From positions 1 to 64,000 of IMG/VR virus record IMGVR_UViG_3300017791_000021: a DNA stretch of 64,000 bases. One strand, written 5' to 3'. The DNA comes from a virus. Lineage: Duplodnaviria; Caudoviricetes. The notes under the pieces are model-generated. The model had not been told where the DNA came from, ran no database searches, and was given only the letters and a program-made list of their open reading frames with translations. This document shows positions 1,333-25,524 of the stretch, piece after piece (the first letter of the stretch is position 1; the number at the start of each line of letters is the position of its first letter). The translations under genes were made by a program, and so were the position numbers.

Positions 1333-1378
1333 ATAAGGTCCCTCGGAAGGGACTGTGAGTATCTTACAATATAGAGCG

Positions 1379-1449
1379 CACGGCGTCAAGGATTCGAACC
1401 CTGGATAACGGTTTTGGAGACCGACGTGTTACCACTACACTAACGCCAT
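1379..1449 (-). tRNA. tRNA-Trp(CCA)
   Basis: Cloverleaf, loop CT-CCA-AA. Confidence 0.9.
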
Positions 1450-1464
1450 AAGGCCCCGAAGGGC

Positions 1465-1680
1465 TTACTTACTATTTGACAGTGCCTTAGTCACGCTGAC
1501 TACACCATCATGTACTGCTTGGGGAAGCTGTGGGAAAGAGCTTACCAGAAGGAGTGCAAAAATGCCACCCGCTATAATCTGGACAATCTTCCAACCCTGC
1601 TTGTTGATCATAATAAAGATCCAGAGTCCCACCAGACCTAGTGGTCCGAGGAATCCCAGAACTGCGAACACGATGTCCAT
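1465..1680 (-). CDS. Small membrane protein
   Basis: RBS AAGGAG before MDIVFAVLG; two hydrophobic helices; TTGACA-17-TACGCT promoter upstream. Confidence 0.7.
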   Translation of the reverse strand: MDIVFAVLGFLGPLGLVGLWIFIMINKQGWKIVQIIAGGIFALLLVSSFPQLPQAVHDGVVSVTKALSNSK

Positions 1681-1705
1681 GTTGCTCCTTTCGGCTGTTG
1701 TTAAC

Positions 1706-1734
1706 AGCGTACTACGGTGTACATGGTGTGTCAA
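1706..1734 (-). promoter_or_regulatory. Housekeeping-sigma-type promoter
   Basis: TTGACA-17nt-TACGCT. Confidence 0.55.
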
Positions 1735-1735
1735 G

Positions 1736-1808
1736 TACTGCTACTCGGATTCGAACCGAGACTGGCTAGTTCCTAAGACTAGTGCCTCTACCATTGGGCT
1801 ACAGCAGC
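1736..1808 (-). tRNA. tRNA-Leu(TAG), short variable loop
   Basis: Cloverleaf, loop CT-TAG-GA, Leu-type D arm GCCCAATGGTAGAGGC. Confidence 0.88.
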
Positions 1809-1977
1809 ATAAGTGGATAGCTGGACTTAAGTTTACCAGCAATGAGATCCTTACGTACTCCGTTGTCTCATACCATCACATTGGGTGCTACCCCAGGTTG
1901 CTAAACCAGCGATGTGCGTTACCCCCGTAAGAAGGGTGTTCCGCCATATCCAGGAGAGGTGATCAACCCCTCCATTG

Positions 1978-2050
1978 TAGTTCTAGTCGGATTCGAACCG
2001 ACACTTTGCAGGACTTAAATCTGCCGCCTCTACCGTTGGGCTATAGAACC
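1978..2050 (-). tRNA. tRNA-Leu(TAA), reads the TTA codon (bldA-equivalent specificity), short variable loop
   Basis: Cloverleaf, loop TT-TAA-GT. Confidence 0.85.
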
Positions 2051-2056
2051 ATTATG

Positions 2057-2131
2057 TACTCCTACTCGGATTCGAACCGAGAACCTTCGGGACTTGAATC
2101 CGACGCCTCTACCAAATTGGGCTACAGGAGC
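2057..2131 (-). tRNA. tRNA-Leu(CAA), short variable loop
   Basis: Cloverleaf, loop TT-CAA-GT. Confidence 0.87.
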
Positions 2132-2142
2132 ATGTTGTAAAG

Positions 2143-2214
2143 AGCCTCAGGAGGGAATTGAACCCTCTACCTTCCCCGTACCAAGGGGATATTCAACCAA
2201 TGAAATTCAGAGGC
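2143..2214 (-). tRNA. tRNA-Thr(GGT), atypical D arm
   Basis: Anticodon stem TCCCC/GGGGA, loop TT-GGT-AC, good T arm; lacks U8 and has a T.T mismatch in the acceptor stem. Confidence 0.7.
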
Positions 2215-2225
2215 ATTGAATGGAG

Positions 2226-2298
2226 AGCCCCCAGTAGGATTCGAACCCACGACCTGTCGCTTACAAGGCGACTGCTCTAGCCACTGAGCTATAAGGGC
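2226..2298 (-). tRNA. tRNA-Thr(TGT)
   Basis: Canonical cloverleaf, loop CT-TGT-AA. Confidence 0.93.
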
Positions 2299-2337
2299 AT
2301 TAGCTATGGTATCACGCCCCATAGCAGGCGTCAAATC

Positions 2338-3153
2338 TTAGGCTACGTTGTTCTTAATGGCCCATGCCTTTAGTGCAGTATACGCAGCAAGTACATCCGC
2401 GTCAACACTAGGTGTTGGACCTGGTGGTGTTGGAGGAGTTGGAGTGCTCAGCTTCACGAACACTGTAGCATCTCCCTGCTCTGCAAGCAAGCGCTCATAG
2501 TCAGCAAAGGAGAAGTAAAAGCGTCCCTTGAGTCCCCAAGAGTCTCCCCAGGAGTTTGTGGCTCCGATAAGCTTGTTGGTAACATCTACCTCATCAAGAA
2601 CGAACTCATGTCCACCACGGACGTAAGCGCTCTTGGTAATAGATACCTTACCAGTCTTGCTCGGATTGTCAAATGATGAATACCAGTTGACACCCGTAAT
2701 GATTGGTCCTAACTGGAGAGCGGCAACAGCGTCCGCAAGAGACGTGATGTGCTGGTAACCAGAGATAAAACCAGCCTTCTGGGCTGCCTTGGCGACGCTC
2801 AAACCGTCTGAACCAGTGTCGGTGGGAGGATACTCGCCTGCATAGCCATCAAGGGCTGTAGCGGAGCTGTAGAGCTTTACAGCCTCATCCTCGTTGAGAG
2901 TTACATCAGAAGGAATGGTAGCGAAGAAATCGCCAGTTCCCAGATTTCCTGTTGCTGCATTTCCAGTACAAGATCCTAGGTCACCCTGGTCTAATACAGG
3001 AATGTAGCGAGTGTGACGAATAGATGTCGCAGTGAATCCAGATCCATCGAACTTATAGTCCAATGAGCGGGAATCATGATTAACGTGTCTTCCTAGGCGT
3101 CCACCAATAGTCTCGGAGGCAACCTCAGGAATGTGACGAGTGTAAATAGCCAA
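2338..3153 (-). CDS. Papain-like (peptidase C1) cysteine protease
   Basis: DQGDLGSCTGNA (Gln/Cys), GGHEF (His), NSWGDSWG (Asn) motifs; Pro-rich C-terminal linker. Confidence 0.9.
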   Translation of the reverse strand: MAIYTRHIPEVASETIGGRLGRHVNHDSRSLDYKFDGSGFTATSIRHTRYIPVLDQGDLGSCTGNAATGNLGTGDFFATIPSDVTLNEDEAVKLYSSATALDGYAGEYPPTDTGSDGLSVAKAAQKAGFISGYQHITSLADAVAALQLGPIITGVNWYSSFDNPSKTGKVSITKSAYVRGGHEFVLDEVDVTNKLIGATNSWGDSWGLKGRFYFSFADYERLLAEQGDATVFVKLSTPTPPTPPGPTPSVDADVLAAYTALKAWAIKNNVA

Positions 3154-3215
3154 TTTCAGTTCCTTGCAAGAGTAGGGCTAAGTATCTCACTCATGATAGC
3201 AATAAAACTGAAGCT

Positions 3216-3258
3216 GTGAGTGGGCTATGAACCTAAATCCACAGCCCACTCAAAAAAA
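3216..3258. terminator. Stem-loop terminator
   Basis: TGAGTGGGCT...AGCCCACTCA inverted repeat flanked by an A tract. Confidence 0.5.
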
Positions 3259-3259
3259 C

Positions 3260-3574
3260 TTACGCGGTGCCTGTTGTAACAATTACATAGTCAGTAGTTG
3301 CATTCAGAGTGAAGTCAATAGGCTGACTAAACTGAGATGCACCATTTAGCTGAACTGTCCATAGAACAGCAGCAGAAGTAACAGGGTTACCTCCACTGTC
3401 AGTTCCAGGTGGAACAGTAGCAGGGTAAAGTGCACGAACGGTTGGGTAAGTAGCACCAGAAGCAGTAGGAGTTGGATACACGTATGCATGTCCATCTGCG
3501 GCAACTGCGGCAACAACTTGCTGTCCAACGGACAATCCGTTTACCTTAACTACAGTATTAGCTCCAAAAGCCAT
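3260..3574 (-). CDS. Hypothetical beta-rich protein (possible virion accessory)
   Basis: RBS GAAAGG; Thr/Val/Gly-rich 104 aa. Confidence 0.65.
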   Translation of the reverse strand: MAFGANTVVKVNGLSVGQQVVAAVAADGHAYVYPTPTASGATYPTVRALYPATVPPGTDSGGNPVTSAAVLWTVQLNGASQFSQPIDFTLNATTDYVIVTTGTA

Positions 3575-3801
3575 ATTATTAAACCTTTCTAGAAAGAAAT
3601 CACTAAGTGATCGCTATAGCAATTCCTATTGTACTAGAAAAGTTGGCTGGTGGTCTCATCCCTCGTGCCTACTTAGCCTGCCAGAGCTAAGCGGTTCTCC
3701 CACCTTGGAGGCCCTACCCGTGTCCGCGCCTCTTCTGACTCGTCTAACCACTCAGTGAGAGGTGATTAGCTGCATCCCGTAAACCGGCTCACTATGCTAC
3801 G

Positions 3802-3872
3802 TACCCCCACAGGGACTCGAACCCTGTCCTTGAGATTGAAAGCCTCAGATCCTACCTATAGACGATGGGGGC
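3802..3872 (-). tRNA. tRNA-Glu(TTC)
   Basis: Cloverleaf, loop CT-TTC-AA. Confidence 0.88.
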
Positions 3873-4042
3873 AGGAACCTAGAGGAGCTACCTCTAGGCT
3901 TATGCGAGCACTGGGCACCAAACAGCCTCACTTATGTATTGATCTATCATAGGCAGCGTATTCCAATTTCCGCTAACGATACCCACTCGAACCCCCGACA
4001 GGGGCATGGTCATATCTTTGGAACCTATGAAGGTGCCGAACG

Positions 4043-4113
4043 TACTCCCAAGGGGGATTGAACCCCTAACTCCAGATTGAGAGTCTGGTATGTTGCCATT
4101 ACACTATGGGAGC
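4043..4113 (-). tRNA. tRNA-Glu(CTC)
   Basis: Cloverleaf, loop CT-CTC-AA. Confidence 0.9.
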
Positions 4114-4255
4114 AAAGATTCATTATTTCCTGCACGGTCATAATGAATCTGGAGAACTTTCTCTGTGTCCTCAGCAGACTTAGCTCTATCCCTCGGCCCG
4201 GCTAAGTGGGTGATATATTCCCCGTGCAGGTTTATATCGTTTGAAGTCTTTCAAG

Positions 4256-4328
4256 CGCTCTCGACGGGATTCGAACCCGCCCCTACACTGTGACAGAGTG
4301 CAATGCTACGCCCATACACTACGAGAGC
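4256..4328 (-). tRNA. tRNA-Asp(GTC)
   Basis: Cloverleaf, loop CT-GTC-AC. Confidence 0.9.
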
Positions 4329-4471
4329 AAGAAGTGCCCTTTAAGGTAGGACACGAACCTTTTTAGATGGAGGACGAGCAGCCTCGGTACCATCGGCTTT
4401 TCCCGTACAGCTTACCCTGGCCTTGGGCGTACTGTCAATAGGGTATTTTATCCCTTAGGAGGACTCGCGCG

Positions 4472-4542
4472 CTCCCCCGTCTGGAATCGAACCAAAACTA
4501 GGAGATCCAAAGGCTCCTGTGCTGCCATTACACCAAGGGGGA
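4472..4542 (-). tRNA. tRNA-Gln(TTG)
   Basis: Cloverleaf, loop CT-TTG-GA, U1-A72. Confidence 0.88.
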
Positions 4543-4679
4543 TAGATTTTGTCAAGTGGTTGGACGTAGCGTGGCTTAAACCCACGTTTCGGCCTTGTCT
4601 TCACCCATAGCTTATCTAGAAAACTATGAACTAGCATCCGGCTTATCCGTGCTCTTGTGCACCGAGCTTTGGCGTCCAG

Positions 4680-4750
4680 CTCCCCATCAAAGATTCGAAC
4701 TTCGATTCTACGCTCCAGAGGCGCATGTATTGCCATTATACGAATGGGGA
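4680..4750 (-). tRNA. tRNA-Gln(CTG)
   Basis: Cloverleaf, loop CT-CTG-GA. Confidence 0.87.
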
Positions 4751-4751
4751 A

Positions 4752-4827
4752 TGGTCCGGTATAGGAGATTCGAACTCCCTCTCTCAGTTTGGAAGACTGA
4801 TGTGCTGCCGTTAAACACTAATACCGA
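4752..4827 (-). tRNA. tRNA-Gly(TCC)
   Basis: Cloverleaf, loop CT-TCC-AA, encoded CCA end. Confidence 0.87.
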
Positions 4828-4865
4828 TTAAGTGAGCAGTTTATACTCATACTCAGGAGAATCTG

Positions 4866-5219
4866 TTACCAGATCTCATCCTCATAGGCGTATGGGTCAA
4901 CCGGAACGGTATCCCAATCATACGGAAAACCCTTGAGGGTAATTATGCAGTTGTATGTATCTATATCAACGATGCGGTCCGCACCATCCTGTACTTCCGC
5001 TGAGACTCCGTATCCTGTCTCCTCGCCCAAGCTGTTCTTAATCATCTCTTCGAACAGGATTCTTGTCAAGTAAGCAGTATCGGTCAAGCGGTTTTGTGCA
5101 CGTCCAGTCTGTAAGGCATCCTTAATCAGACGTGGCAGATACGTGCCATCCCAGTGCGTGTACAGGTAGACGCCCGGACGACCATTCTCGTGGATATAAA
5201 CGTTTGCCCTATCTCCCAC
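4866..5219 (-). CDS. Hypothetical phage protein
   Basis: RBS AGGAGG; GDRANV..YLYTHWDG motif recurrent in phage hypotheticals. Confidence 0.75.
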   Translation of the reverse strand: MGDRANVYIHENGRPGVYLYTHWDGTYLPRLIKDALQTGRAQNRLTDTAYLTRILFEEMIKNSLGEETGYGVSAEVQDGADRIVDIDTYNCIITLKGFPYDWDTVPVDPYAYEDEIW

Positions 5220-5283
5220 AGTTCCTCCTAGTCGATTTCAGTAACTGGAGTGTACTACATAAGATAGGGCTTGTAAAGTAACG

Positions 5284-5360
5284 TGGGGGCACAGGTAGGA
5301 GTCGAACCTACTACTTGCAAGCTTATGAGGCTTGTGAGACACCGTTTCTCTATCCGTGCA
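5284..5360 (-). tRNA. tRNA-Met(CAT), initiator-like
   Basis: Loop CT-CAT-AA, 1:72 mismatch, fMet-like D stem GAG/CTC, encoded CCA; lacks the three G-C anticodon-stem pairs. Confidence 0.8.
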
Positions 5361-5361
5361 G

Positions 5362-5433
5362 TGGCTCAGGTAGGAATCGAACCTACAACAATCCGCGTAT
5401 GAGACGGACGCTCTGCCATTGAGCTACTGAGCC
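5362..5433 (-). tRNA. tRNA-Met(CAT) elongator (or Ile2)
   Basis: Canonical cloverleaf, loop CT-CAT-AC. Confidence 0.88.
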
Positions 5434-5486
5434 AAAATCATGGTTTTTATTGTGTTCCTCTACGGGATAACCATGAACCCGCATTG

Positions 5487-5559
5487 TGGTCCCCACCGGA
5501 CTTGAACCGATATCCTCCGGGCTTCAACCGGATGCTCTGCCAAATTGAGCTAAAGGACC
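5487..5559 (-). tRNA. tRNA-Phe(GAA)
   Basis: Cloverleaf, loop TT-GAA-GC. Confidence 0.9.
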
Positions 5560-5638
5560 ATTAAGCGATGAGCAAGTCTATATGATGAGCACCATTCTTA
5601 TCAATTGTTGAGGGTGTGTTCATATGTGATCTCACTCA

Positions 5639-5713
5639 TGGTCGGGTACCGGGGAATCGAACCCCGTTTATCCTGTTCCCAAAACAGGCGGATTACCATC
5701 TTCCTCGTACCCG
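5639..5713 (-). tRNA. tRNA-Pro(TGG)
   Basis: CGGGTAC/GTACCCG acceptor, loop TT-TGG-GA, encoded CCA. Confidence 0.88.
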
Positions 5714-11485: not shown

Positions 11486-11608
11486 TCACACCCTGTACGG
11501 CACGTAAACGGGCCTAGGACAGCCTAGGGGAGCATCCTAGGCCCGTTGTCCCACCCAAGCTAAACGATCACGCTAGACAGCCTCACAGAGCTTTAGGGAG
11601 AAACGATC

Positions 11609-13384: not shown

Positions 13385-13491
13385 CACACCCTAGAACGTG
13401 CTACAGGGTGCCTAGGACAGCCTTACAGGGGTTCTAGGCACCCTTTCCCCAACGACCCTAAACGATCTTGTTAGAGAGGCACTGAGAGACT

Positions 13492-13895: not shown

Positions 13896-13986
13896 CTATA
13901 TTTATATATAGAAATAGGTAGGGATTAGAGATATATTTCTCTGTCCCTATCTATTTCTATTTCTCCTTCTAATAGGAATAGGGATT

Positions 13987-14103: not shown

Positions 14104-14236
14104 CGTGTGGTGCGGGAAGAGCCCTAGGAACGGCTGAGAGGCTGTCTCTAGGGCTCTTGGCATGTCTGATGGACACAGAGACCTAGGGCAGGGTGTGAGG
14201 CTGTCACACGGGCACACAGAGCGTTTGCGTGTGGAG

Positions 14237-15466: not shown

Positions 15467-15606
15467 TGCCGATTGTCAGACTGCTGATTCTGCCTCTTGT
15501 GTGGGGATTCCTCGCACTGTGTGCGGTTTTCATGCTGGTTTACGGTGGCCTCTTTTGGGTAATGACCGGAGAGACCTACACCATTCGTCTCAACATCGGA
15601 AACTGA
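15466..15606 (+). CDS. Small membrane protein
   Basis: TAATG-coupled 46-aa hydrophobic ORF. Confidence 0.55.
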   Translation: MPIVRLLILPLVWGFLALCAVFMLVYGGLFWVMTGETYTIRLNIGN

Positions 15607-15616
15607 GGAAAAGCAC

Positions 15617-15847
15617 ATGATGACTCGCAAGCACTTTCAGAAGACTGCCGACATTCTCAATGCGCGTATTCGTACGTGTCTGGTGAGTGTGGATGGCGTC
15701 AACATTCCTGGTCTGATTCTCCCCGAAATGGCGGGGGAATACGCGCAGCTCACTTCCCTTGCAGATGAGTTTGCGGATTGGTTCGCGGATGACAATCCGA
15801 GTTTCAACCGTGAGCGGTTCATGCAGGCTGCTTATCGCTGCAATTGA
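15617..15847 (+). CDS. Conserved phage hypothetical protein
   Basis: MTRKHF..ADIL...DNPSFNRERFMQA motif. Confidence 0.75.
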   Translation: MMTRKHFQKTADILNARIRTCLVSVDGVNIPGLILPEMAGEYAQLTSLADEFADWFADDNPSFNRERFMQAAYRCN

Positions 15848-15926
15848 TGGTGCTTTCCGCGCGGAAATACGTAGGGATTGTGTCCCTATAGTCCGTGCGG
15901 ATTACTCCACCAATTGAGGGGAAATA

Positions 15927-16157
15927 ATGGCAACTCTTCGTGATCTTGAGGAAATGCTCAAGCGTTTGCCTGATGGCATCAAAGACACGGAATTTGTGGT
16001 TTTCGACACGCACACGGGAACACGTACAACGTTCACAAAGGGTGTGTCTGAATTGGTCATGGTTGGTAGCCATGGCCGAGCGTTTGTGGAACTACGGGGA
16101 GCGCAAGACTTTATGCAGCGTTCAACCCCTCCCCCGTTCCCTGGTAAGCCTAGCTAG
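15927..16157 (+). CDS. Hypothetical protein
   Basis: RBS GAGGGG. Confidence 0.65.
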   Translation: MATLRDLEEMLKRLPDGIKDTEFVVFDTHTGTRTTFTKGVSELVMVGSHGRAFVELRGAQDFMQRSTPPPFPGKPS

Positions 16158-16235
16158 AGGGGTTGCATCACCTAAGCCACTGTGCTTAGATGGTGCTGTC
16201 CACCTAGACAGGGTGGCTCACTCGGAGGTAATCCA

Positions 16236-16367
16236 ATGGCTGTCAACCTGAACAACCGTGCCGGTATCACCTGCGGTAAGCGCTCGGATGGTTCGCGCTG
16301 CGTGCTGTGGAGTGACGACACGTTCGAATGGTTCAACGCTGAGGAGTTCAACGCGCTGTTTGTCTAG
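16236..16367 (+). CDS. Small hypothetical protein
   Basis: GGAGG RBS before MAVNLNN. Confidence 0.6.
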   Translation: MAVNLNNRAGITCGKRSDGSRCVLWSDDTFEWFNAEEFNALFV

Positions 16368-16434
16368 TCTGATTGTGTCTTGCAGGGGTGAAAATCCCTG
16401 TGAGGCACTGTCCGACTAAACGGGAAGGTAAGAA

Positions 16435-16629
16435 ATGTTTACCCTGCTCATGACGATTTACGCTATCGGCGCAATCGCATTGTTTTTCGGATGCATAATC
16501 AGCGGAGTACAGGAGAATGACACTCCGCTAAAGCTCATCGGTGACGCTGTATTCGTGGCTGTCATTTGGCCGGTTGGCATAATCGGTCTGTTTCTCATGC
16601 TGATATGGTGGGGAATCGTAGGCGACTAA
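16435..16629 (+). CDS. Small membrane protein
   Basis: Two TM helices, WP motif. Confidence 0.65.
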   Translation: MFTLLMTIYAIGAIALFFGCIISGVQENDTPLKLIGDAVFVAVIWPVGIIGLFLMLIWWGIVGD

Positions 16630-16721
16630 CGTTTTACGTCATTCAAACAAACTAGATGCATTGCATCATTCCCGAGTAATTCGGGAGTGGTGTTGTTCAC
16701 CTAGTGGAAAGGCTGTGAACA

Positions 16722-16904
16722 GTGATTGCATGGTATTTGGTGATAGGTGCGGTATTCGGTACTTCCGGATATTTCGGAATGCGGAATGCCAAGCATGGTC
16801 AAGGTAAATCCCTACTCGCATTCTTCGGTTTGCTGGTAGGTTGGCCGGTAGTTGTGTTGGGTGGATTCATCGCGTTTCTTCTCTTCGGGGATGGGATGTT
16901 CTGA
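16722..16904 (+). CDS. Small membrane protein
   Basis: Two TM helices, WP motif. Confidence 0.65.
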   Translation: MIAWYLVIGAVFGTSGYFGMRNAKHGQGKSLLAFFGLLVGWPVVVLGGFIAFLLFGDGMF

Positions 16905-17005
16905 TGAATTGGTGGCAAGCACTGATTGCGACTTTTGGATCATTCGGTTTCGCTGCTGTGTTCGTTCTCTGGGCTGCATGGGTGACCAGAGACAGAGATT
17001 TCTAG
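16904..17005 (+). CDS. Tiny membrane protein
   Basis: TGATG-coupled 33-aa hydrophobic ORF. Confidence 0.5.
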   Translation: MNWWQALIATFGSFGFAAVFVLWAAWVTRDRDF

Positions 17006-17074
17006 ACGTGTTGCATCCTTCTAAGACATGTGCTTAGATGGGTGTTGTTCGCCTAGACGAAAGGACGCGAACTC

Positions 17075-17368
17075 ATGGCCGGTATTCTGCCTGTTGGCAA
17101 CGGAAATCAGATTCTCTTTCTGGACGCTGAGGAAGCGGGATTTCTGAAAGATCTTCTCATGTGTCACGTGGCCGGAAAGCTCACGACCGGAGATGAGCCG
17201 CTAGCGCGTGTGTCTAAGGCTCTTGCGCCTGTTGACCGTAGGCTGTCCCGTAAGGCTGCTGAGTATGGACACAGCGGGTACGCCGTAGTAGAGTCGTACC
17301 AGGACAGCACAGAGGAAGCGTACGCGCTTAACAGGCTGTTTGACAGCCTCAACGGTGAAGGGTTCTAA
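17075..17368 (+). CDS. Hypothetical protein
   Basis: RBS GAAAGGA. Confidence 0.65.
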   Translation: MAGILPVGNGNQILFLDAEEAGFLKDLLMCHVAGKLTTGDEPLARVSKALAPVDRRLSRKAAEYGHSGYAVVESYQDSTEEAYALNRLFDSLNGEGF

Positions 17369-17722
17369 ATGGCACTGGAGAATTACGGAACCATTTGGGT
17401 GTGCGGCAATTGTCTGCACCATCACGCAAATGGTGAGTGTGGAGACTGTCACTCAGACCATGGGCACGATGAGGAACCGTTGAGCGCAATTGAGAACGGT
17501 TTTACCGTGGCAATGGGTATGACATGGGGTGACCACAACGACGAATGCCTTACGTATATCGTCAACAATCTTCGTGCGAATTATCCGGATATGGTTTGGC
17601 CGGATGTTCCGGGGGATTACTGGTGTGATTGTGAGGATGTGTCGTACAGCTACACACAGTGTGACGGTTGCGGTACGTATCTTCACGGTGAGCGACACGC
17701 GCTAACGCTCTTCAAGGAGTAG
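17369..17722 (+). CDS. Cys/His-rich metal-binding protein
   Basis: CGNC..ANGEC..CDGCGTYLHGERH. Confidence 0.7.
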   Translation: MALENYGTIWVCGNCLHHHANGECGDCHSDHGHDEEPLSAIENGFTVAMGMTWGDHNDECLTYIVNNLRANYPDMVWPDVPGDYWCDCEDVSYSYTQCDGCGTYLHGERHALTLFKE

Positions 17723-17820
17723 ACATCTTTTCTCGCTCCCCCGCTTGACACGGGGGAACGGGGATGGTTAGCTAGTCCTAGCAAGCCAGACAGCAGCAAC
17801 ACAGACCGAAAGGTAAGATC

Positions 17821-18087
17821 ATGACTGAGCTTCAGATTCGCATTGCGATTGCCAACCACCCCAAGGTTCAGGCGTACCGCAAGGCTGTTCAGATCATGCA
17901 CGCTCGCATGGTGGCCACGTACGGTGAGGACTACGCGCAGGACTACGACGCGAACGCGCGCCCGGACGTGAACCCTGTTGGTATCTCCCGCATGACTCCG
18001 CTTGACCTTCAGCGGTTCGAAAGCCTCATGCGTGGAGCCGCTATCGTCCGTAGGGACGTGCGAGCGTCCATCCTGGCCACTGTCTAA
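17821..18087 (+). CDS. Hypothetical protein
   Basis: RBS GAAAGG. Confidence 0.65.
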   Translation: MTELQIRIAIANHPKVQAYRKAVQIMHARMVATYGEDYAQDYDANARPDVNPVGISRMTPLDLQRFESLMRGAAIVRRDVRASILATV

Positions 18088-18147
18088 CTGAGACGCTACA
18101 GGGGAGCCTGTAGAGCCTTACAGGCTCCTCGTTAGGGAGGTAGTATC

Positions 18148-18363
18148 GTGGAAGATGTGACCAAATCTCATTACAACGCTGAGTTTGTCACCGATCACGG
18201 ACAGACAACACGTATTACAAACCTGTCCGGAATCCAGGTGAAAGAGGTTATCGAATTGAAGAAAGAGGGAAGAACATTCATTTCCTCTGACATCTTCGGA
18301 GACATCACGGTAATTGACCTTAGCAAGATAACGACTATTAATTTCTCCAAGCGTCACAACTGA
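18148..18363 (+). CDS. Hypothetical protein
   Basis: RBS GGGAGG. Confidence 0.6.
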   Translation: MEDVTKSHYNAEFVTDHGQTTRITNLSGIQVKEVIELKKEGRTFISSDIFGDITVIDLSKITTINFSKRHN

Positions 18364-18379
18364 GAAAAGAGAAAACAAA

Positions 18380-18586
18380 ATGCAGATGCTCATGAATCCC
18401 CCTTTCATGCTCGTTAAGCCTTCCAATTACGTTGTTGTTTCCAACAATGGGAAGACTGAGCGTGTGGTGTTCGGCGCGAATCTCCCGCTCACAAAGCGCG
18501 CTGCAAACAGTTTTGCCAAGACTCACGTAAAGGGTGAGTTTCGCGTGATCATGCGCAAGACTGCGCAGCGTGCCGGTTTGATCTAG
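18380..18586 (+). CDS. Basic hypothetical protein
   Basis: ORF in operon. Confidence 0.6.
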   Translation: MQMLMNPPFMLVKPSNYVVVSNNGKTERVVFGANLPLTKRAANSFAKTHVKGEFRVIMRKTAQRAGLI

Positions 18587-18652
18587 TGCGCTTTAATCGG
18601 TATCCCGGAAACGGGATATCGGTTATGGTTCCCTAGTCGAAAGGCAATCCAA

Positions 18653-19162
18653 ATGAACGTAATTGGTGGATTCTCGCTCTGTGGAGTTTGTGACGCTCTT
18701 ATCGAGAATCGAAAGGGAATTTGGTGGGCAACTGTCGATGACACGGCCGTTTCGGATAACGTGGAAGTGCACAAGCATTTCCCCGCTACGGCTTTTGGTT
18801 ACGACTCCCACAAGTACGGCAGTGACATTCGGACCGAGATTCTTTCGGTCATGGGTGATTTCGCTTTCAATACGGAATCGCTTGGTGAGGCTGAGACATT
18901 CGGATATTACGAACTGTTCGAAGATCTCTGCGCAATTGTGGAATACGACTCGCAAGGGTTTGTGTTCTCGACCATTTACGACACGCCCGAAATGGCGCGT
19001 AATGCTTGGTCGCATGTCGAAACCGATTATGACGAATGGTTGGATGATGAGCCCTGTAACTGTGGTTCATACAACTGTGACGCATACGCGGATCGAACCG
19101 AGTACGAACCGGACATTTTCGACTATGCGATGCAAACCATGGAAAATGACCTACTTCGCTAG
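18653..19162 (+). CDS. Acidic hypothetical protein
   Basis: Asp/Glu-rich; DSQGFV motif; RBS GAAAGG. Confidence 0.7.
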   Translation: MNVIGGFSLCGVCDALIENRKGIWWATVDDTAVSDNVEVHKHFPATAFGYDSHKYGSDIRTEILSVMGDFAFNTESLGEAETFGYYELFEDLCAIVEYDSQGFVFSTIYDTPEMARNAWSHVETDYDEWLDDEPCNCGSYNCDAYADRTEYEPDIFDYAMQTMENDLLR

Positions 19163-19251
19163 TCGATTCTGTCGCATCCTGTCGCTTGACAGGGTGCGGG
19201 AGTGTCCACTAGATTTGGACTTGTCAGCAGGACAGCAGGAAGGAACACAAA

Positions 19252-19794
19252 ATGTCGTACGTGTGGGGACGCGCTTACAACCGGCTCACGGGTGAAAGCA
19301 TGATCAAGCCCGAATTCCCCCGCATCATGGCGTTTGACCACATGTCCGAATGGTACAAGGCTTATTACGCCTACGTTTCGGACATGAAGAAGTGGGACGC
19401 ATTCATTGCGGAAATCCCGGACACTTACCGTTACGAGCGTCCCAAGCTCGTTCACGCGAAGGTGAAGGGGATTCCAGTTCCGCGTACCGGTTCGCGTCGC
19501 TGGCACAGCGGTAAGAACTCTGGTAAGTCGGGAGTGATCGGAAACTCTCGTGTGCTGCCTCACCGTTACATGGATGAGGGAGACAAGGGAGCGGCGCACA
19601 ACCGGCACATCAAGCGCGTGGAGCGCGCACAGTGGCTCTCTGAGGCTCTGGAAGAGCTGAGGGAACAGGAAGACGCTTACAGCGTCTCAGACTGGTACGG
19701 TGGCGTTTTCGGGCAGGATGACGCAGACGCTTGGTACGACTACGACACGGAAGAGTACGAATGCGAGTACTGCCAGGGTCCGTGTGAGCTGTAA
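19252..19794 (+). CDS. Hypothetical protein with basic core and acidic tail
   Basis: RBS GAAGGA. Confidence 0.7.
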   Translation: MSYVWGRAYNRLTGESMIKPEFPRIMAFDHMSEWYKAYYAYVSDMKKWDAFIAEIPDTYRYERPKLVHAKVKGIPVPRTGSRRWHSGKNSGKSGVIGNSRVLPHRYMDEGDKGAAHNRHIKRVERAQWLSEALEELREQEDAYSVSDWYGGVFGQDDADAWYDYDTEEYECEYCQGPCEL

Positions 19795-19814
19795 AAGATC
19801 TTGAGCTAGTGGCT

Positions 19815-19843
19815 TGACAGGGTAGACGTTGGTTCGCTAACGT
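19815..19843 (+). promoter_or_regulatory. Housekeeping-sigma-type promoter
   Basis: TTGACA-18nt-TAACGT. Confidence 0.5.
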
Positions 19844-19892
19844 CTTCCCTATCAAGTTCCTAACCAGGGAACTTAACGGAAGGACACAGAAA

Positions 19893-20765
19893 ATGGCTTC
19901 TCGACCGAAGAACAACAGCGGAGCGCTTGACCTGGTTAAGGCTTTCGTGGTTCTCCAGTCTTTCGACGTGACGGAGGATGACCCGGTTTCAACCGAGGAT
20001 TTCGCCGCTGAAATGGGGGTCACTCCTGCGGAAGCGTTCGCCGCTCTTGACTCCCTGGCAGATGTTGAGCTTGTGGACGCGGTAGGGCGTGGCCTCTCCG
20101 CTGAGTGGTGGATCAACGTTCCGGATGTCTCGGCCGAGAATGCCGAGAGCATCGCGCGGGAAGCGCTTGACGGAATGGTTCAGGTGGTCAAGGATGAACC
20201 GCGTAAGCTCACTCAAAAGGAGCAGGATTACAAGGATCGTACGGCGTACAACGCTTATGCGGATGAGCGCGCACAGGGTTTCGTTTCCTCGGAAGTAATT
20301 CCGGCCGTTACTCCGGTAATTGCGGAGAATGGCGAGACTGTCACCATTCCGGTTGACTTTGACAATCCGGAAGCGGGTAGGCGAGAGCTTGACGCAAGCA
20401 AGGGTGAGCGGGTAATTTCTGAGGACACGTTCAAGGTTTCCGCTCCCAAGACTGAAAAGGCAATTCAGGAATTGGCGGATAAGCTCGCTGAGCTTTCGCC
20501 TAAGCCTCTCCCCGTGATTGATGGACTGGATCAGTTCATTGATGACGAAACGGGAGACATGGTTTATGAGTCTCGGATTGTCAAGAGTGGACTTGCTCTC
20601 GATGAGCCTAGCGAGATTCCCCCGACTCCTGAGGGAGTCAACCGGAATACGTGGCTTGCAGCTCACGACGCAATCACTCAGAGCGCGCGTGATTGGTATA
20701 TGGCACGTGCTAAGGCGCAAGAGGAAGAGTTCAAGATCAACAAGGGTGCGCCTGCTCCGTTCTAG
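19893..20765 (+). CDS. Acidic protein with N-terminal winged-helix-like region
   Basis: VSTEDFAAEMGVTPAEAFAALDSLAD.ELV HTH-like pattern. Confidence 0.7.
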   Translation: MASRPKNNSGALDLVKAFVVLQSFDVTEDDPVSTEDFAAEMGVTPAEAFAALDSLADVELVDAVGRGLSAEWWINVPDVSAENAESIAREALDGMVQVVKDEPRKLTQKEQDYKDRTAYNAYADERAQGFVSSEVIPAVTPVIAENGETVTIPVDFDNPEAGRRELDASKGERVISEDTFKVSAPKTEKAIQELADKLAELSPKPLPVIDGLDQFIDDETGDMVYESRIVKSGLALDEPSEIPPTPEGVNRNTWLAAHDAITQSARDWYMARAKAQEEEFKINKGAPAPF

Positions 20766-20831
20766 TCGGATGGGTTAGACTCCGGTAGCAATATCGGAGT
20801 CTTTCCCTCCCAACTAGAAAGGTCATAGGAA

Positions 20832-21017
20832 ATGATCAAGGTTATTGCTGGTTCTGTCGCTGCGCTGATTCTCGCTGTGATTGTGGGAATCGTTCTCGTG
20901 GCAATCGGTAAGTTCCTTCTTGGGGTGGCTCTTGTGGTCGGATTGATTCTGATTGCTGGGCTGGTTCTTGCGGGAGTTTTCGGAAGTAAGTTCCTTGACT
21001 TCTGGAAGTCGTTCTAG
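20832..21017 (+). CDS. Small membrane protein
   Basis: Very hydrophobic, two TM helices. Confidence 0.7.
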   Translation: MIKVIAGSVAALILAVIVGIVLVAIGKFLLGVALVVGLILIAGLVLAGVFGSKFLDFWKSF

Positions 21018-21094
21018 GTTTAATGAGCTTTAGGGATTATCGGGGAAACCCGATATTCTCTATGGTCCACTAAACCGAATGGAGAAAAACAGAA

Positions 21095-21685
21095 ATGATT
21101 ACGCTTACCAAGGACATGGGTGCGGCTGACCTTCCGGGCGTTACCAGTCTTCAGATTGGCGTTTCGTGGGACACTACGGCCGGTAGCTCTGGTGGAATCC
21201 TGGGCAAGATCAAGAAGAAGGCAGGCACTGACCTTGACCTGATCGCAATTGCGATGAGCGGTGAAAACCCTGTGCGCCTTGCTGGTCTGGATTCTCTCGA
21301 TCCTCTGGGCAATGGCTCTATGGTTCACAGTGGCGACAACCAGACTGGCCACGGTGAGGGGGACGACGAAACCGTAACCCTGAACTTTGCCAAGATTCCC
21401 GCTCCTGTCACTTCCATTGTCTTTGTGGCTAGCGCATTCAAGCGCGGTAGCTCTTTCCAGAAGGCACGGAATATCTCTTTCAAGGTTTATGACGCTACGG
21501 GCGGTAGCTCTGAGCAGGTGGCCGATATCTGGCCTTCCCTTCTTAGCAATCACAACACGTGCGCAATCGCTAAGGCTGTTCGTACGTCCGACCCTGCCGT
21601 TTGGACCCTTGAGGTTCTGGAGTACTTCGGTAGCGTCACACAGGGGGATGAATTCTCCCTCATGCGGTTTGCTGTTGGTCGCTAG
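21095..21685 (+). CDS. terD: TerD-family stress protein
   Basis: IGVSWD, DLDLIA, HSGDNQTGHGEGDDETVTLN motifs. Confidence 0.9.
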   Translation: MITLTKDMGAADLPGVTSLQIGVSWDTTAGSSGGILGKIKKKAGTDLDLIAIAMSGENPVRLAGLDSLDPLGNGSMVHSGDNQTGHGEGDDETVTLNFAKIPAPVTSIVFVASAFKRGSSFQKARNISFKVYDATGGSSEQVADIWPSLLSNHNTCAIAKAVRTSDPAVWTLEVLEYFGSVTQGDEFSLMRFAVGR

Positions 21686-21750
21686 TTGAGTTTAGGGATA
21701 GCCACTTTAACGAGTGGCTTTCTCTATGCCTAACTAGAAAGGGCTGAACA

Positions 21751-21960
21751 ATGGAAGATCTGTATTCTCCGGAGTTCTGGGCAATCGTTGCCTCTAAGGT
21801 TCGTGAGGGACAACGGAAAGGGCAAGCTGTATTCAATACGGCTGCTGAGTTCCACCACAAGGAAGCGGGGGAACTGACAGGTACAGTCTTTGACCCTTTC
21901 TATCAAGATGCGAAGGTTTCCGCATTCCTGGAAAAACTCGCTGACATCCTCACCCGATAG
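21751..21960 (+). CDS. Conserved phage hypothetical protein
   Basis: QRKGQAVFN...FDPFYQD motif. Confidence 0.7.
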   Translation: MEDLYSPEFWAIVASKVREGQRKGQAVFNTAAEFHHKEAGELTGTVFDPFYQDAKVSAFLEKLADILTR

Positions 21961-22159
21961 GAGTAATGGAGTGGAATTCCCCCTAGGTATGTTCTATGGG
22001 CTGATGATAGGTATTGGCGCGTCAGTCATTCTCTTTGTTCTCGCTGGTGCTCCCGCTGCAAGAGATGGGCAATTCAGTAAGGACTGTAAGACAATGGCAC
22101 ACGCTAAGGTGAGTAACCATCTGTGTGTCAATGGTGACAAGATTCTCTTTCACCAGTAA
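21890..22159 (+). CDS. Membrane-anchored hypothetical protein (true start probably about 21970-21990)
   Basis: TM helix followed by a small Cys pair. Confidence 0.55.
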   Translation: MTLSIKMRRFPHSWKNSLTSSPDRSNGVEFPLGMFYGLMIGIGASVILFVLAGAPAARDGQFSKDCKTMAHAKVSNHLCVNGDKILFHQ

Positions 22160-22162
22160 ATA

Positions 22163-22218
22163 GCGAAAACCCCTTACGTCTCCTCAATTTGAGGAATTAG
22201 GCGTAAGGGGTTTTTCGT
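22163..22218. terminator. Bidirectional terminator
   Basis: GCGAAAACCCCTTACG...CGTAAGGGGTTTTTCGT. Confidence 0.8.
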
Positions 22219-22765
22219 ATGTAGGGACTTGACAGGTACACAGCACACTGTGCCGACGCAGACCCTAGAAGCTCTGTACGGCTGTCTAACAAGATCGTTT
22301 AGGTGGGTCGGTCTCTCTGTCCAACTGGGGTACGCGAGGCTGTCAGAGAGGCGTACAGGGTGCCTAGCGACCGCTTGAGGCTCCGTGGCTGAACTCGTGT
22401 GTATGGATGGCGATAGCCTGAATCTGCTTACGGGCGGTTTCCTTGCTTTGCGGATGCTTGCTGAAGGTATGTCCTCCCTTGTGCGCAGCCTTGTAACCAC
22501 CCTTGACCTTTCGTACTTCGTACGGCATGACGTTAGTTCCCCTTAGCTAGGCATAGGCCCGTTGTAGTGTCTGTGTGGCTGTCTGAGACGCTTACGCTTG
22601 CTGCCTGCCCTAGAGCTAGGGTGTCTCCGCGTACGGCGCACACGGTGAAAGCTACGGCAGCAGCCAATAAGGCAGAGACAGCCGCACTTGTATAAGTCTT
22701 TCTGTCCCATAACCCATGAGATTGTGATTGGTTATCCATTGATTCTCCGTTGGAATAGATGAAAC

Positions 22766-22814
22766 GCAAAAAAGCCGATAACCCCATTCTAGCGAAGAAT
22801 GAGGCTATCGGCTG
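22766..22814 (-). terminator. Terminator of the leftward early operon
   Basis: AGCCGATA...TATCGGCT stem with a minus-strand U tract. Confidence 0.65.
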
Positions 22815-22827
22815 TAATGCTATTTAA

Positions 22828-23055
22828 TTAGAACTCGTCCATATTCCAATCAGACTCGTCATAGGAGATAGTCACAAGCGAGTCAGTGTCAAGAATGAAC
22901 GACTTAACGTCACCATTCGTCATGACACCGTTAACGCAGTAGTCACCCATAGACAACTCGGCATCGGAATACGCGATGAACTCACGTCCAAGCGCATCCG
23001 TAACCTTGTCACCCGTACGGATATCAGCGGGAGACTGACGCTCGTAAGTAACCAT
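22828..23055 (-). CDS. Acidic hypothetical protein
   Basis: MVTYERQ start with GAAAGG RBS. Confidence 0.65.
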   Translation of the reverse strand: MVTYERQSPADIRTGDKVTDALGREFIAYSDAELSMGDYCVNGVMTNGDVKSFILDTDSLVTISYDESDWNMDEF

Positions 23056-23152
23056 TGTGTTGTTTTGCCTTTCGTACATGAGACTAGCGGATTGCTAGCC
23101 ATAGCCACCCCTGGAGTATTCCAGAGATGACTAAAGCTGTCAATCGGTTATG

Positions 23153-23368
23153 CTACTCCGCCACCTTCACAATCTCATAGGTGGCATTGTCCAACGCAAC
23201 TGTATAAAGCTCAATGGTGCAAGCCTTATATGCCTTTGCGGACAATCCCAAGACAGCCCAACGGCAAGCCAATTTCGAAAGCTGTTCGTCTGTCTTGTTG
23301 TTACCCGCAATGATATGCGTTGCATGGTCATTGTCAAGCGTAGGCCAAGTGACGATTGCAATACGCAT
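23153..23368 (-). CDS. Hypothetical protein
   Basis: RBS GAAAGGG. Confidence 0.6.
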   Translation of the reverse strand: MRIAIVTWPTLDNDHATHIIAGNNKTDEQLSKLACRWAVLGLSAKAYKACTIELYTVALDNATYEIVKVAE

Positions 23369-23443
23369 AACGTTATTCCCTTTCCGTTGACCATAGCCGT
23401 TATCCTCCCTGTCTAAGCGGAGGATAGCGACTAAAGCAAACGG

Positions 23444-23998
23444 TTAGTGATTGGCGAAAACATACAGTTCATAACCGTACTCATGCGACGCAAAGTCATT
23501 CATGAGGTTATCCGCTGTCTGCTCCCAGTCAATCGAAACATACGGGGAATTCAGGATGCCCGAGAATTCTTCGTCATTCTCGACAAATTCCTGTGCGAAC
23601 TCTTCCGCATTGTCGTACACACCGTAATAACCATCCTCATACGCACGGCCATAACGGGTGTTCTGGAAATTGCTTTCCATCCATCCGAAAAGCTCACCAT
23701 ACGCGATGATCTTACCGGCATCGTCCGGAGACTCGAACAGTGCGTCAAACACAGCGGACAGAGTACCCGCGTCCTTGATATCCGACGCGTTCAGGTAGTC
23801 GTTATCCGTGTGAATGAACACACGGTGAATCTCCCACCCTGCCCGCTCCATACCCTTGATGATGTTGTCTACCGATCCGCAATCGTGCGTGTCGTCAAAC
23901 TCAACGTCACGAGTGATAACGCGTCGGTCGATTCCCGCAGTGCCAACAAAGGCAGTGAAAGAAACCTCAATGTGCGAGAACGTCTCACCAACAGCCAT
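23444..23998 (-). CDS. ardA: ArdA-like antirestriction (DNA-mimic) protein
   Basis: Highly acidic; YYGVYDNAEEFAQEFVE and YVSIDWEQTADNLM match the ArdA C-terminal signature. Confidence 0.82.
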   Translation of the reverse strand: MAVGETFSHIEVSFTAFVGTAGIDRRVITRDVEFDDTHDCGSVDNIIKGMERAGWEIHRVFIHTDNDYLNASDIKDAGTLSAVFDALFESPDDAGKIIAYGELFGWMESNFQNTRYGRAYEDGYYGVYDNAEEFAQEFVENDEEFSGILNSPYVSIDWEQTADNLMNDFASHEYGYELYVFANH

Positions 23999-24081
23999 TT
24001 TATGGCCTTTCTATAGCTTCCTATTCCGATTAGGAAGACATAGAGACTTTCCCCCGAAAGGGGGAAGATCCCTAAATCCCA

Positions 24082-24321
24082 CTACGCGGAGTAAGTCACG
24101 AAAACCTCAGAATCCGATTCGTCTACGAACTCCAGAGAGGCAGTCTCGTTACCCTCCTGCTCAAGCCACGTACGCATGAGCGACGTAAGCTGATCGATCG
24201 GGGCAGTCTCGGCAAGAATCGCCATTACCGCGCCGGTAGCCTCATCGAGGCAGTTCAGCGGAATGTTACCGCCGTGCGCGATGTGAACGGGGCAAGACTC
24301 CGTGATCGTGAGGATAGCCAT
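24082..24321 (-). CDS. Acidic hypothetical protein
   Basis: RBS GAAAGG. Confidence 0.65.
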   Translation of the reverse strand: MAILTITESCPVHIAHGGNIPLNCLDEATGAVMAILAETAPIDQLTSLMRTWLEQEGNETASLEFVDESDSEVFVTYSA

Positions 24322-24412
24322 GGTGTTAGCCTTTCAGCCGTTGTCGTTGTTGGCTCTAGTGAACCCTACCGACTAGGTTCTGTCAAGCGATGAACCTAGA
24401 CGATAGTGGAGG

Positions 24413-24811
24413 CTAGAACTCCCGAGTTGCGATGTGGTGAACCAGCCACGACGTTACCAGTCGCATGGTCCAACCGTCAATGACCCAATTCGGTTCGCCA
24501 CCCTGCAAGTGCAAGGGCGTACCTGTACGCATTTCGAGCAACGTTTCCGGATTGTAGTCCGAAACAAACTGTCCATGCTCGGTAAAGTCGTAACGCGAGT
24601 CGTAGAACGACACTACCTCAGTAGTGGAGTAACTACCATCACGGTACTTACGGCGTCCGAAAGTCACGCGGAAAGGAATTCCCTTTTCGGTAACAACGTC
24701 AACCATGCGGAGAGCAGGAACAGCATTCTTCCCCTTGTTCGAGCATTCGGGACGCTCACACTGAACGTTCCCACACGGACGCTGAGACAGCATCGTACGA
24801 CACTGAGTCAT
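24413..24811 (-). CDS. Conserved phage hypothetical protein
   Basis: SFYDSRY..GQFVSDY..L.LQGGEPNW motif; RBS AAGGAGG. Confidence 0.75.
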   Translation of the reverse strand: MTQCRTMLSQRPCGNVQCERPECSNKGKNAVPALRMVDVVTEKGIPFRVTFGRRKYRDGSYSTTEVVSFYDSRYDFTEHGQFVSDYNPETLLEMRTGTPLHLQGGEPNWVIDGWTMRLVTSWLVHHIATREF

Positions 24812-24930
24812 TGCCTTACCTCCTTGTGCGCTTCCCCTTTAGGAAGCTAGCACCATCTAAGCACACTGTCTTAGGTGGCGCAAGCTCACTACGTGGTATC
24901 TGCATTGCCGTTGTGGCGACGAAGAGAACG

Positions 24931-25158
24931 TTACGCGCTCACTGCGATCGTGTCAACACCCGTTCCCCGGTAGACGTAGCCAACCCTTACCGCCGTAGAG
25001 TCACAACGGGCGTTCACGTCGTTGTGCCTGTACAGGGTGCCGTTAGACCTACGCTTGACACCCTTACGGCAGACAGGACAGCGAACCTGTCCAGGCTTAA
25101 GGGTTTCCACCTTACGCGGAATGGCTTGGAATGCCTTACTGCGTTTGATCGTTGTCAT
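24931..25158 (-). CDS. Basic zinc-finger protein, probably leaderless
   Basis: CPVC..G.LYRH..C; TTGACA-16-TATGGT promoter ends 7 nt before the ATG. Confidence 0.6.
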   Translation of the reverse strand: MTTIKRSKAFQAIPRKVETLKPGQVRCPVCRKGVKRRSNGTLYRHNDVNARCDSTAVRVGYVYRGTGVDTIAVSA

Positions 25159-25524
25159 GGGGAGAACCATACTCCCATCGGGCAGGCTGTCAACTGTGCA
25201 TGTCAGAGGGTGTCTGTATGCCTCTCTCACGCGCGTACAGGGGAGCATGGGGGACACGTGCTAGGGTTCTCCCAACAACGCGCCACACGGGCACACAGAG
25301 ACTCGCAAGAAAGGGACGCGGGAGCGCTTGACACGGTGCCGTGAGCGTGATTGAATGTAGTCATGAACGGAGCGCTTGCGCTCTAAGGGCCACCTGTCGG
25401 GCCACTCGGCAGCCTACGGATTCGTACCAGGGGTGCCCGAAAACAAATGTCCGATTTATACCTTATATCGTATTATCTGTAGCTATTAATGGAATCATGC
25501 CTACAAATGGGAGACTGAGGGACA

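Follow-up and report, generated by a model that had tools for sequence, protein, structure and literature searches.

Covarying hairpins between the small genes of a putative Borockvirus-like Streptomyces phage: a strand-specific RNA family with a possible role in processing

Do the long imperfect hairpins that separate small genes in the virus record IMGVR_UViG_3300017791_000021 act as signals in the RNA, and if so, what reads them? The stretch of DNA analysed here (the window) covers the initial 64 kb of this 111,015-bp record, which has direct terminal repeats. An initial annotation of the window had pointed to such hairpins between 15.8 and 24.9 kb, many of them closed by CTAG, and had likened them to those of phage T7, whose early polycistronic mRNA is cut by host RNase III at intercistronic hairpins. 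Nucleotide relatives among public phages are limited to the Streptomyces phages BRock (Borockvirus), Alone3, LuckySocke, and pSt2308, and a search for relatives with a 290-amino-acid protein returned a single one. Judged from its sequence, the source appears to be a Borockvirus-like Streptomyces myophage. The annotation of Alone3 describes a myovirus with many tRNAs and without an RNA polymerase or RNase III. Gene coordinates were taken from our own crude calls, and the counts of stop codons, gaps, and intergenic hairpins given below depend on them.

A strand-specific hairpin family between cistrons

The hairpins are a genuine family of strand-specific elements at the RNA level, located between cistrons. 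A single long stem-loop was found at all 16 of the sites initially annotated, with 18-28 pairs, of which one to five were G·U, a minimum free energy (MFE) of -21.8 to -37.6 kcal/mol, and z-scores of -2.9 to -7.8 (100 dinucleotide shuffles each). The sense strand folded more stably in 15 of the 16, by up to 13 kcal/mol, the exception being the hairpin at 24839-24892. A filter of at least 18 pairs at any energy was uninformative (1983 hairpins everywhere) and was replaced by energy thresholds. At an MFE of -28 or lower, 40 single hairpins were intergenic and in sense orientation, 14 were intergenic and antisense, and 25 lay in coding sequence, which accounts for ~80% of the genome.

Both annotated sequence motifs, GCTTTA(G/A)...(C/T)TATGG and TTGCATC...GGTG(C/T)TGT, are real and define two subfamilies. 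Subfamily A has the form CTAG-N3-GCUUUAG...CUAUGG-N4-CUAG. When ten copies were aligned with MAFFT and the pairs counted, compensatory changes were present in 13 of 17 predicted pairs. A covariance model (R1) made from this alignment found clear copies in this genome (8), BRock (3), pSt2308 (3), Alone3 (4), and four IMG/VR relatives (8, 8, 12, and 3). Across 55 distinct rows from eight genomes or records, 93.3% of cells were paired, compared with 63.5% after shuffling and 40-50% after sliding, and 16 of the 17 pairs showed compensatory changes; it weakens these figures that the 55-row alignment was fitted to the model structure and holds a few antisense hits. The ten-copy MAFFT result and the comparison of orthologues described below are free of this bias. 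Subfamily B (UUGCAUC...GGUGYUGU) showed compensatory changes in 11 of 18 pairs over 15 copies, and the corresponding model (R2) found four copies in this genome, five in the related genome G001, two in G003, and six in G005, a different 71-kb phage. Pattern scans of IMG/VR for A and B each returned at least 117 stretches, mostly chance matches; among the 234 loci listed, 11 were long single hairpins, seven of them in relatives or in G005.

Cells of the 55-row alignment were Watson-Crick in 702 cases, G·U in 164, and A·C in 24, and its loops were of the GAAA type in 18 of 55 rows. Because G·U exceeds A·C and folding energy is biased towards the sense strand, the conserved structure is that of sense RNA and not of duplex DNA. 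We consider it highly likely that the hairpins are sense-RNA elements acting after transcription.

Orthologues lead to the same structures. The window and G001 are collinear, with an identity of about 72-88%, and the orthologous hairpins of G001 differ only through structure-preserving changes or replacement of a whole stem. The hairpin at 15841-15916 has undergone seven substitutions, each of which preserves pairing; paired swaps occur in those starting at 19159, 19807, 23385, and 24356; and at 18583 and 23090 the motifs are kept while the inner stem has been wholly replaced. Within 15.8-24.9 kb, megablast matched public phages at the 17002 hairpin and nowhere else, and the copies of this hairpin are about 90-95% identical across five phages with flanks that diverge. 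Rfam gave no match at E ≤ 1 in 15500-25200, and only tRNAs reached the gathering score in the window. No account of these hairpins turned up in the literature searched (main texts, few of them from subscription journals), and the intercistronic family is apparently undescribed.

The placement of the hairpins between same-strand open reading frames (ORFs) is clear. Same-strand gaps are bimodal in length, with 69 of up to 20 nt, seven of 21-45 nt, and 36 of 46-110 nt; 27 of these last 36 fold at -20 kcal/mol or lower, and 28 are more stable in the sense strand. In the two small-gene arrays, a hairpin was present in each gap of at least 60 nt that was inspected. As initially described, the hairpins occupy the interval from a stop codon to the next ribosome-binding site. 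The stop codon of the preceding gene lies inside or abuts the base of the stem in 16 of 20 hairpins outside a small subfamily, D (TAG 13, TAA 2, TGA 1; the 162 stops called genome-wide comprise 99 TAA, 42 TAG, and 21 TGA), and GAAAGG or a similar purine-rich Shine-Dalgarno (SD) sequence follows 0-5 nt beyond the hairpin in about half.

The seven CTAG...CTAG cases initially listed are exact, but CTAG is not what defines the family. Genome-wide it is not enriched (397 seen vs. 385 expected), although 18 pairs of CTAG lie 49-52 nt apart and most other spacings occur one to four times each. The closing helix itself covaries (CTAG/CTAG, TTAG/CTAA, CTAA/TTAG, ATAA/TTAT, ATTG/CAAT) while a stop codon remains the base of the stem, so that CTAG is a consequence of the stop codon rather than the signal.

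These seven hairpins are on the plus strand. Those of subfamily B lie at 16154-16207 (TAG stop in the base; R2, 60 bits), 16652-16704 (57 bits; GAAAGG starts 2 nt beyond), and 17002-17056 (76 bits; near-identical in BRock, pSt2308, Alone3, and G003). Those of subfamily A lie at 18583-18636 (GCUUUAA...UUAUGG, GAAA loop; R1, 61 bits; -27.8 in sense vs. -14.6 in antisense) and 21682-21737 (R1, 60 bits). The remaining cases are 19159-19212, which carries GAUU/UGUC, and 20762-20817, which has a UU/UU internal loop and a GCAA loop and is followed by AAAGG. On the same strand, the 76-nt hairpin at 15841-15916 follows the gene 15617-15847, whose TGA stop is within the stem base (MFE -37.6, z -6.4), and the hairpin at 16364-16419 combines GAUU/UGUC (U·G and U×U), a GAAA loop, and a TAG in its base (MFE -33.3 in sense vs. 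-19.8 in antisense). An A-like hairpin (CUUUU/GAUGG) is found at 17719-17775, and a further subfamily A copy with a GAAA loop at 21017-21076 (R1, 59 bits). Two copies within this region were absent from the initial annotation, one at 18087-18144, adjoining the TAA stop of 17821-18087, and one with a UUCG loop at 19807-19862.

On the minus strand, subfamily A is represented at 23090-23146 (R1, 52 bits) and 23385-23444 (46 bits; overlapping the TAA stop of 23444-23998). The copy annotated at 24010-24082 does exist as a hairpin, but with a different extent: it comprises an A-type hairpin at 24030-24085 (GTAG...CTAA; 53 bits) and, after it, a second, small stem (24010-24044). A CTAG-closed hairpin at 24356-24416 was supported by folding, its drawn structure, and the comparison with G001. 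The subfamily B copy at 24839-24892, upstream of the gene 24413-24811 (R2, 51 bits), differs in its top stem from its orthologues in BRock, pSt2308, and G001. Nor is the family limited to 15.8-24.9 kb, as had been supposed. CTAG-closed subfamily A copies also occur on the minus strand at 54646-54695 (TAG stop, then AGAGGA; R1, 51 bits) and 55341-55394 (GAAA loop, then AGGAG; 59.5 bits). Subfamily D, which lacks the U×U mismatch described below, has a copy at 62780-62837 (minus strand), with the same layout of stop, hairpin, and SD as the others, and a second at 63901-63960 (minus strand), from the energy-threshold fold scan and its drawn structure.

Internal structure and candidate functions

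In all 22 hairpins that were drawn, the stem spans 22-26 positions, and all 22 reach the length of an RNase III site (about two helical turns, or ~20 bp or more that are mostly double-stranded). The lower stem has about 9-10 positions, the first bases being the stop codon of the preceding gene. Another 13-15 positions make up the upper stem, which often weakens again ~7 pairs up, and the loops are small and often of the GNRA type. Approximately one helical turn above the base, every subfamily except D has a weak point at which U is mismatched with U (U×U), in most cases beside a U·G wobble. Among MFE structures, 16 of 22 hairpins have a U×U at a distance of 7-14 nt from the base, compared with 23 of 287 coding-region (8%) and three of 53 intergenic-antisense hairpins at an MFE of -22 or better. 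The weak point takes the form CUUUA/UAUGG in subfamily A (U×U in 48 of 55 rows), U·G, U×U, G·U side by side in subfamily B (U·G in 11 of 15 rows, U×U invariant, G·U in 13 of 15), and GAUU/UGUC in the hairpins at 16364 and 19159.

We favour processing by host RNase III, at somewhat below even confidence, because of the two-turn length, the internal weak point, a precedent in Streptomyces coelicolor, the absence of a phage RNase III or double-stranded RNA-binding domain (dsRBD), and the restriction of terminators to the ends of operons. [quoted passage not shown] Two converging operons (~15.6-22.2 kb rightward and ~24.9-22.8 kb leftward) would presumably be transcribed by host RNA polymerase, with a few further hairpin copies in a long leftward block. 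Host RNase III (AbsB in Streptomyces) would then cut at or beside the conserved mismatch, which would leave the upstream cistron ending in a protective stem and the downstream cistron starting a few bases before its ribosome-binding site. A polycistronic RNA would thus become a set of separately stable and separately translated units.

The processing system initially proposed is upheld in part: the sense-RNA family lies between cistrons, and its length and mismatch suit a substrate of RNase III, but a domain search of the phage genome detected neither an RNase III nor a dsRBD. Together with the occurrence of B-type hairpins in the different lineage of G005, this means that any cleavage would need a host factor. 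Sequencing data for the phage comprise soil metagenome contigs and one metatranscriptome (RNA run X13, contigs; share 0.06). Of the eight RNA contigs listed on 15800-25000, three have an end (17067, 19867, 20756) no more than 10 nt away from the edge of a hairpin, and one runs across the hairpin at 18583. Because assemblies break at repeats and RNA ends are not visible in contigs, these contig ends are not informative on processing.

Several observations weigh against RNase III cleavage. To our knowledge, bacterial RNase III does not require a conserved sequence, and the subfamilies keep motifs of 6-8 nt, so that a sequence-specific protein fits at least as well. The extent of the elements from stop codon to SD is left unexplained by cleavage and fits a translational role. 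Moreover, a sigma-70-like TTGACA-18-TAGATT lies in the 19159 hairpin (19186-19215, plus strand), and on visual reading a hexamer resembling a -10 element follows TTGCAT by 17-18 nt in the B copies; promoter sequence could thus make up part of what is conserved. Similar hexamers include TTGACA-18-TAACGT at 19813-19848 (plus strand), kept in G001, TTGACA in the loops of the hairpins at 17719 (17745, plus strand) and 24356 (24386, minus strand), and further ones at 23143-23115 (minus strand). Orthologues of the 17719 hairpin in other phages keep TTGAC(A/G/T) in the loop. A sigma-70 promoter scan did not exceed shuffled sequence (11 vs. 14.9), and promoter readings of single hairpins are for that reason anecdotal.

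In one alternative, the hairpins act as folded RNA that is never cleaved. They could be a barrier to exonucleases from either side (a stabiliser or insulator), a coupler that loops out the spacer, or both. In the coupler, the stop and the next SD would be brought side by side, so that the lower stem is opened by the ribosome that terminates there and then re-initiates. The position of the stop at the stem base, the SD close behind, and the bimodal gaps, most of the longer of which fold, all suit this account, and the sense-strand folding, covariation, and G·U evidence apply to it equally. The U×U lies ~7 nt past the stop, which, judging from ribosome footprints, is about as far as a ribosome at the stop codon would unwind. 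As a stabiliser, the hairpins would have a counterpart in the repetitive extragenic palindromes and bacterial interspersed mosaic elements (REP/BIME) of enterobacterial operons, which are high-copy, nearly invariant palindromes of the host genome that stabilise upstream mRNA. Both are imperfect palindromes just after stop codons within operons, but those described here are phage-borne, diverged, and compensated. Left unexplained are the constant two-turn stem length and the motifs CUUUA/UAUGG and UUGCAUC/GGUGYUGU, and direct overlap of stop and start, present elsewhere in the genome, couples without any spacer. We regard an uncleaved stabiliser or coupler as possible, though improbable.

The conserved motifs within otherwise covarying stems raise the further possibility that a sequence-specific RNA-binding protein of phage or host binds the hairpins and controls translation or timing. 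This would accommodate the near-identity of the 17002 copy in five phages with divergent flanks and the conserved leader after the hairpin in most gaps of G005 (seven of nine). The phage also encodes a Ro-like (TROVE) RNA-binding protein outside the window (G000:C1:110421-110648, minus strand; 63 bits, above the cut-off), which appears in the Alone3 annotation as well. We nevertheless judge it unlikely: no candidate protein for these hairpins has been identified, and several motif subfamilies would require several proteins or a loose specificity.

A comparison can be made here with the SAS (start-associated sequence) elements and their extended form, ESAS, of cluster K mycobacteriophages, which two reports describe as repeated inverted repeats in a single orientation, with a function still unknown (PMC3203893, PMC12699233). 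Like them, the hairpins are repeats in one orientation directly upstream of the starts of non-structural genes, conserved per gene family, and the similar placement of ESAS speaks for a protein site. According to Pope et al., however, the half-sites of the 17-bp ESAS inverted repeats are conserved in sequence, departures are not compensated, and the authors doubt an mRNA hairpin (PMC3203893), whereas the stems examined here covary strongly (16 of 17 and 13 of 17 pairs). The 13-nt SAS consensus had one match in the window with two mismatches (44404), against 1.36 expected by chance. Identity with SAS/ESAS was thus rejected, since the consensus is not above chance and the stems are compensated.

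The last transcript-level alternative is termination. As initially noted, no U tract follows the hairpins, and a terminator scan, whose total did not exceed shuffles (15 vs. 16.3), flagged only the inner stems of the subfamily A copies at 21017 and 21682, where the 3' arm is U-rich. Canonical U-tract terminators occur only at operon ends and are far shorter than the hairpin stems: an ordinary bidirectional one at 22163-22218, the meeting point of the plus- and minus-strand operons, and another at 22766-22820 (minus strand), at the end of the leftward hairpin-punctuated operon. Neither belongs to the family, and with no U tract behind the hairpins themselves, intrinsic termination was rejected for them.

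U-less attenuators, which would grade expression along the operon, have a reported parallel, as Ingham, Hunter and Smith are said to have described U-tail-less rho-independent terminators in the phiC31 early region in 1995. The hairpins are likewise stable, U-less, and placed between genes in an early-type region of a Streptomyces phage. Unlike those of phiC31, they are longer, form covarying families, have conserved internal mismatches, and stand inside operons with normal terminators. Stems of 22-26 positions with conserved internal mismatches are not what terminator stems look like, and 13-18 partial terminators in series would silence distal genes. In one study, purified recombinant mycobacterial RNA polymerase, with NusA and NusG, did not stop at hairpins without a U tract, and its authors state that contaminating nucleases could account for older reports of U-less termination (PMC3993855). 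Attenuation of this kind appears quite unlikely.

Cassette junctions, gene context, and a second lineage

The hairpins coincide with junctions of mosaic gene cassettes. Where homology between this phage (G000) and G001 comes in blocks, the blocks stop at the edges of hairpins, and an additional gene sits between two B hairpins in G001. In run X3, a contig from soil connects 21078 to 21719 with 32 other letters between, so that the TerD gene (21095-21685), located between two A hairpins, is missing; the variant keeps an A hairpin, the counterpart of that at 21682-21737, with a different but still complementary inner stem. The TerD gene is therefore a dispensable cassette. Further soil contigs depart from the window at 17058, 18088, 23144, and 24416, all of which are hairpin edges.

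The same junctions could be read as the work of DNA-level recombination linkers or mobile palindromes, similar to attC sites or miniature inverted-repeat transposable elements, which would bound cassettes and fold only incidentally as RNA. Beyond the breaks at hairpin edges and the two cassette differences, the CTAG...CTAG flanks would be compatible with duplication of a TA target, which we assume to be the preferred one. The excess of G·U over A·C, the sense bias in energy, and the common GNRA-type loops speak instead for RNA; the copies are too diverged for a recently mobile element and yet keep their pairing; and phage mosaics commonly have their junctions at gene boundaries. The tyrosine recombinase domain PF00589 had no match in the 111-kb genome, while a control was matched in 14 of 14 genomes. 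A role as DNA linkers is very unlikely, and attC sites with a resident integrase were rejected, given the absence of PF00589. The base of the hairpins consists of a stop codon and its complement. The junctions for cassette exchange between related phages are a by-product of the conserved hairpins.

The small genes form a rightward block up to 22159 and a leftward block from 24811 down to 22828, both converging on the bidirectional terminator. Pfam searches with ten proteins returned only TerD (21095-21682) and a weak match to ArdA (23447-23998) below the cut-off; the Alone3 counterpart of the latter protein is annotated as ArdA-like. The operons had been called early, and this gene content makes the label plausible: they are probably early, as far as an ArdA match below the Pfam cut-off can indicate. 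Elsewhere in the window, 17 tRNA genes detected by Rfam are clustered at 1261-5712 (minus strand), and an AT-rich, near-perfect palindrome of ~53 nt (13901-13964, MFE -31.9) stands in surroundings of ~50% GC. Another type of repeat, CCTAGG/ACAGCC hairpins, is found at 11499-11580, 13397-13480, 14110-14163, and 22258-22374; three of these sites are followed by a common ~20-nt stretch containing CTAAACGATC, and they may serve the early region as promoters or operators.

G005 extends the comparison to a phage distantly related to the Fowlmouthvirus mycobacteriophages. It carries an array of small ORFs with hairpins between them (C1:14000-26000, minus strand). Nine gaps after small ORFs contain a B-type or B-like hairpin, seven of which are CTAG-closed, and seven of the nine continue with a purine-rich, conserved leader that leads up to the start codon. 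T-arm-like stem-loops were seen in two longer gaps of this array. Mycobacterium phage MrMiyagi (MT776806, 32631-42588; genes 38-59), distantly related to G005, has arrays of small genes with a leader closely similar to that of G005. In 11 of its 13 intergenic gaps of at least 35 nt, the module is a tRNA-like minihelix, in which a T-arm-like stem-loop (GGTTCGAnTCC) accompanies an acceptor-like stem that covaries. It is followed by ..CACGA, and then by a small hairpin and by a leader, also conserved, that ends in AGGATGGAAA..ATG. ARAGORN and Rfam called nothing in the intergenic elements of MrMiyagi. tRNA-like structures are classical substrates of tRNA- and RNA-processing enzymes, and the MrMiyagi elements look like tRNA-type punctuation of mRNA.

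We take the interchange of modules at equivalent places as indirect support for an RNA-processing role. A broader picture is offered here as doubtful: the arrays of small early genes in actinobacteriophages may carry a modular RNA punctuation, in which interchangeable structured modules between the stop codon and the leader or SD are read by host RNase III, RNase P, or RNase Z and double as junctions for cassette swaps. The module would be the two-turn U·G/U×U hairpin in Borockvirus-like phages and G005, and the tRNA-like minihelix in Fowlmouthvirus. If this were true, signalling in the RNA and horizontal exchange would work through one and the same unit.

Comparison with known processing sites and significance

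If host RNase III does process the hairpins, the nearest models are found in T7 and in Bacillus phage SP82. The T7 sites are likewise long imperfect intercistronic hairpins of an early operon that the host polymerase transcribes, with an internal loop that divides a lower from an upper stem, and without termination. They differ in that the phage studied here has at least 20 copies instead of a handful, a stem base formed by the stop codon, a U·G/U×U motif, several subfamilies, and an actinobacterial host, and in that its cleavage is presumed. The early RNA of SP82 reportedly contains conserved RNase III-type processing sites, each with a polypurine 5' stabiliser downstream. There, too, sequence-conserved hairpins recur between the cistrons of a Gram-positive phage, with purine-rich sequence (here the SD) directly after. 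The sequences are unrelated, the copies here are many more, and the present case is known from sequence alone.

The hairpins would add to phage biology a defined, covariation-supported RNA family outside Rfam, with 15-20 copies per genome in at least two phage lineages. They mark the points at which related phage genomes break and rejoin, and they provide a point of comparison for the long-unexplained SAS/ESAS of mycobacteriophages. They offer candidate natural substrates with which to define the specificity, so far poorly characterised, of Streptomyces RNase III, and they suggest small parts for insulation or processing in multigene Streptomyces constructs. They also open the post-transcriptional organisation of early genes in large actinophages to direct experiment.

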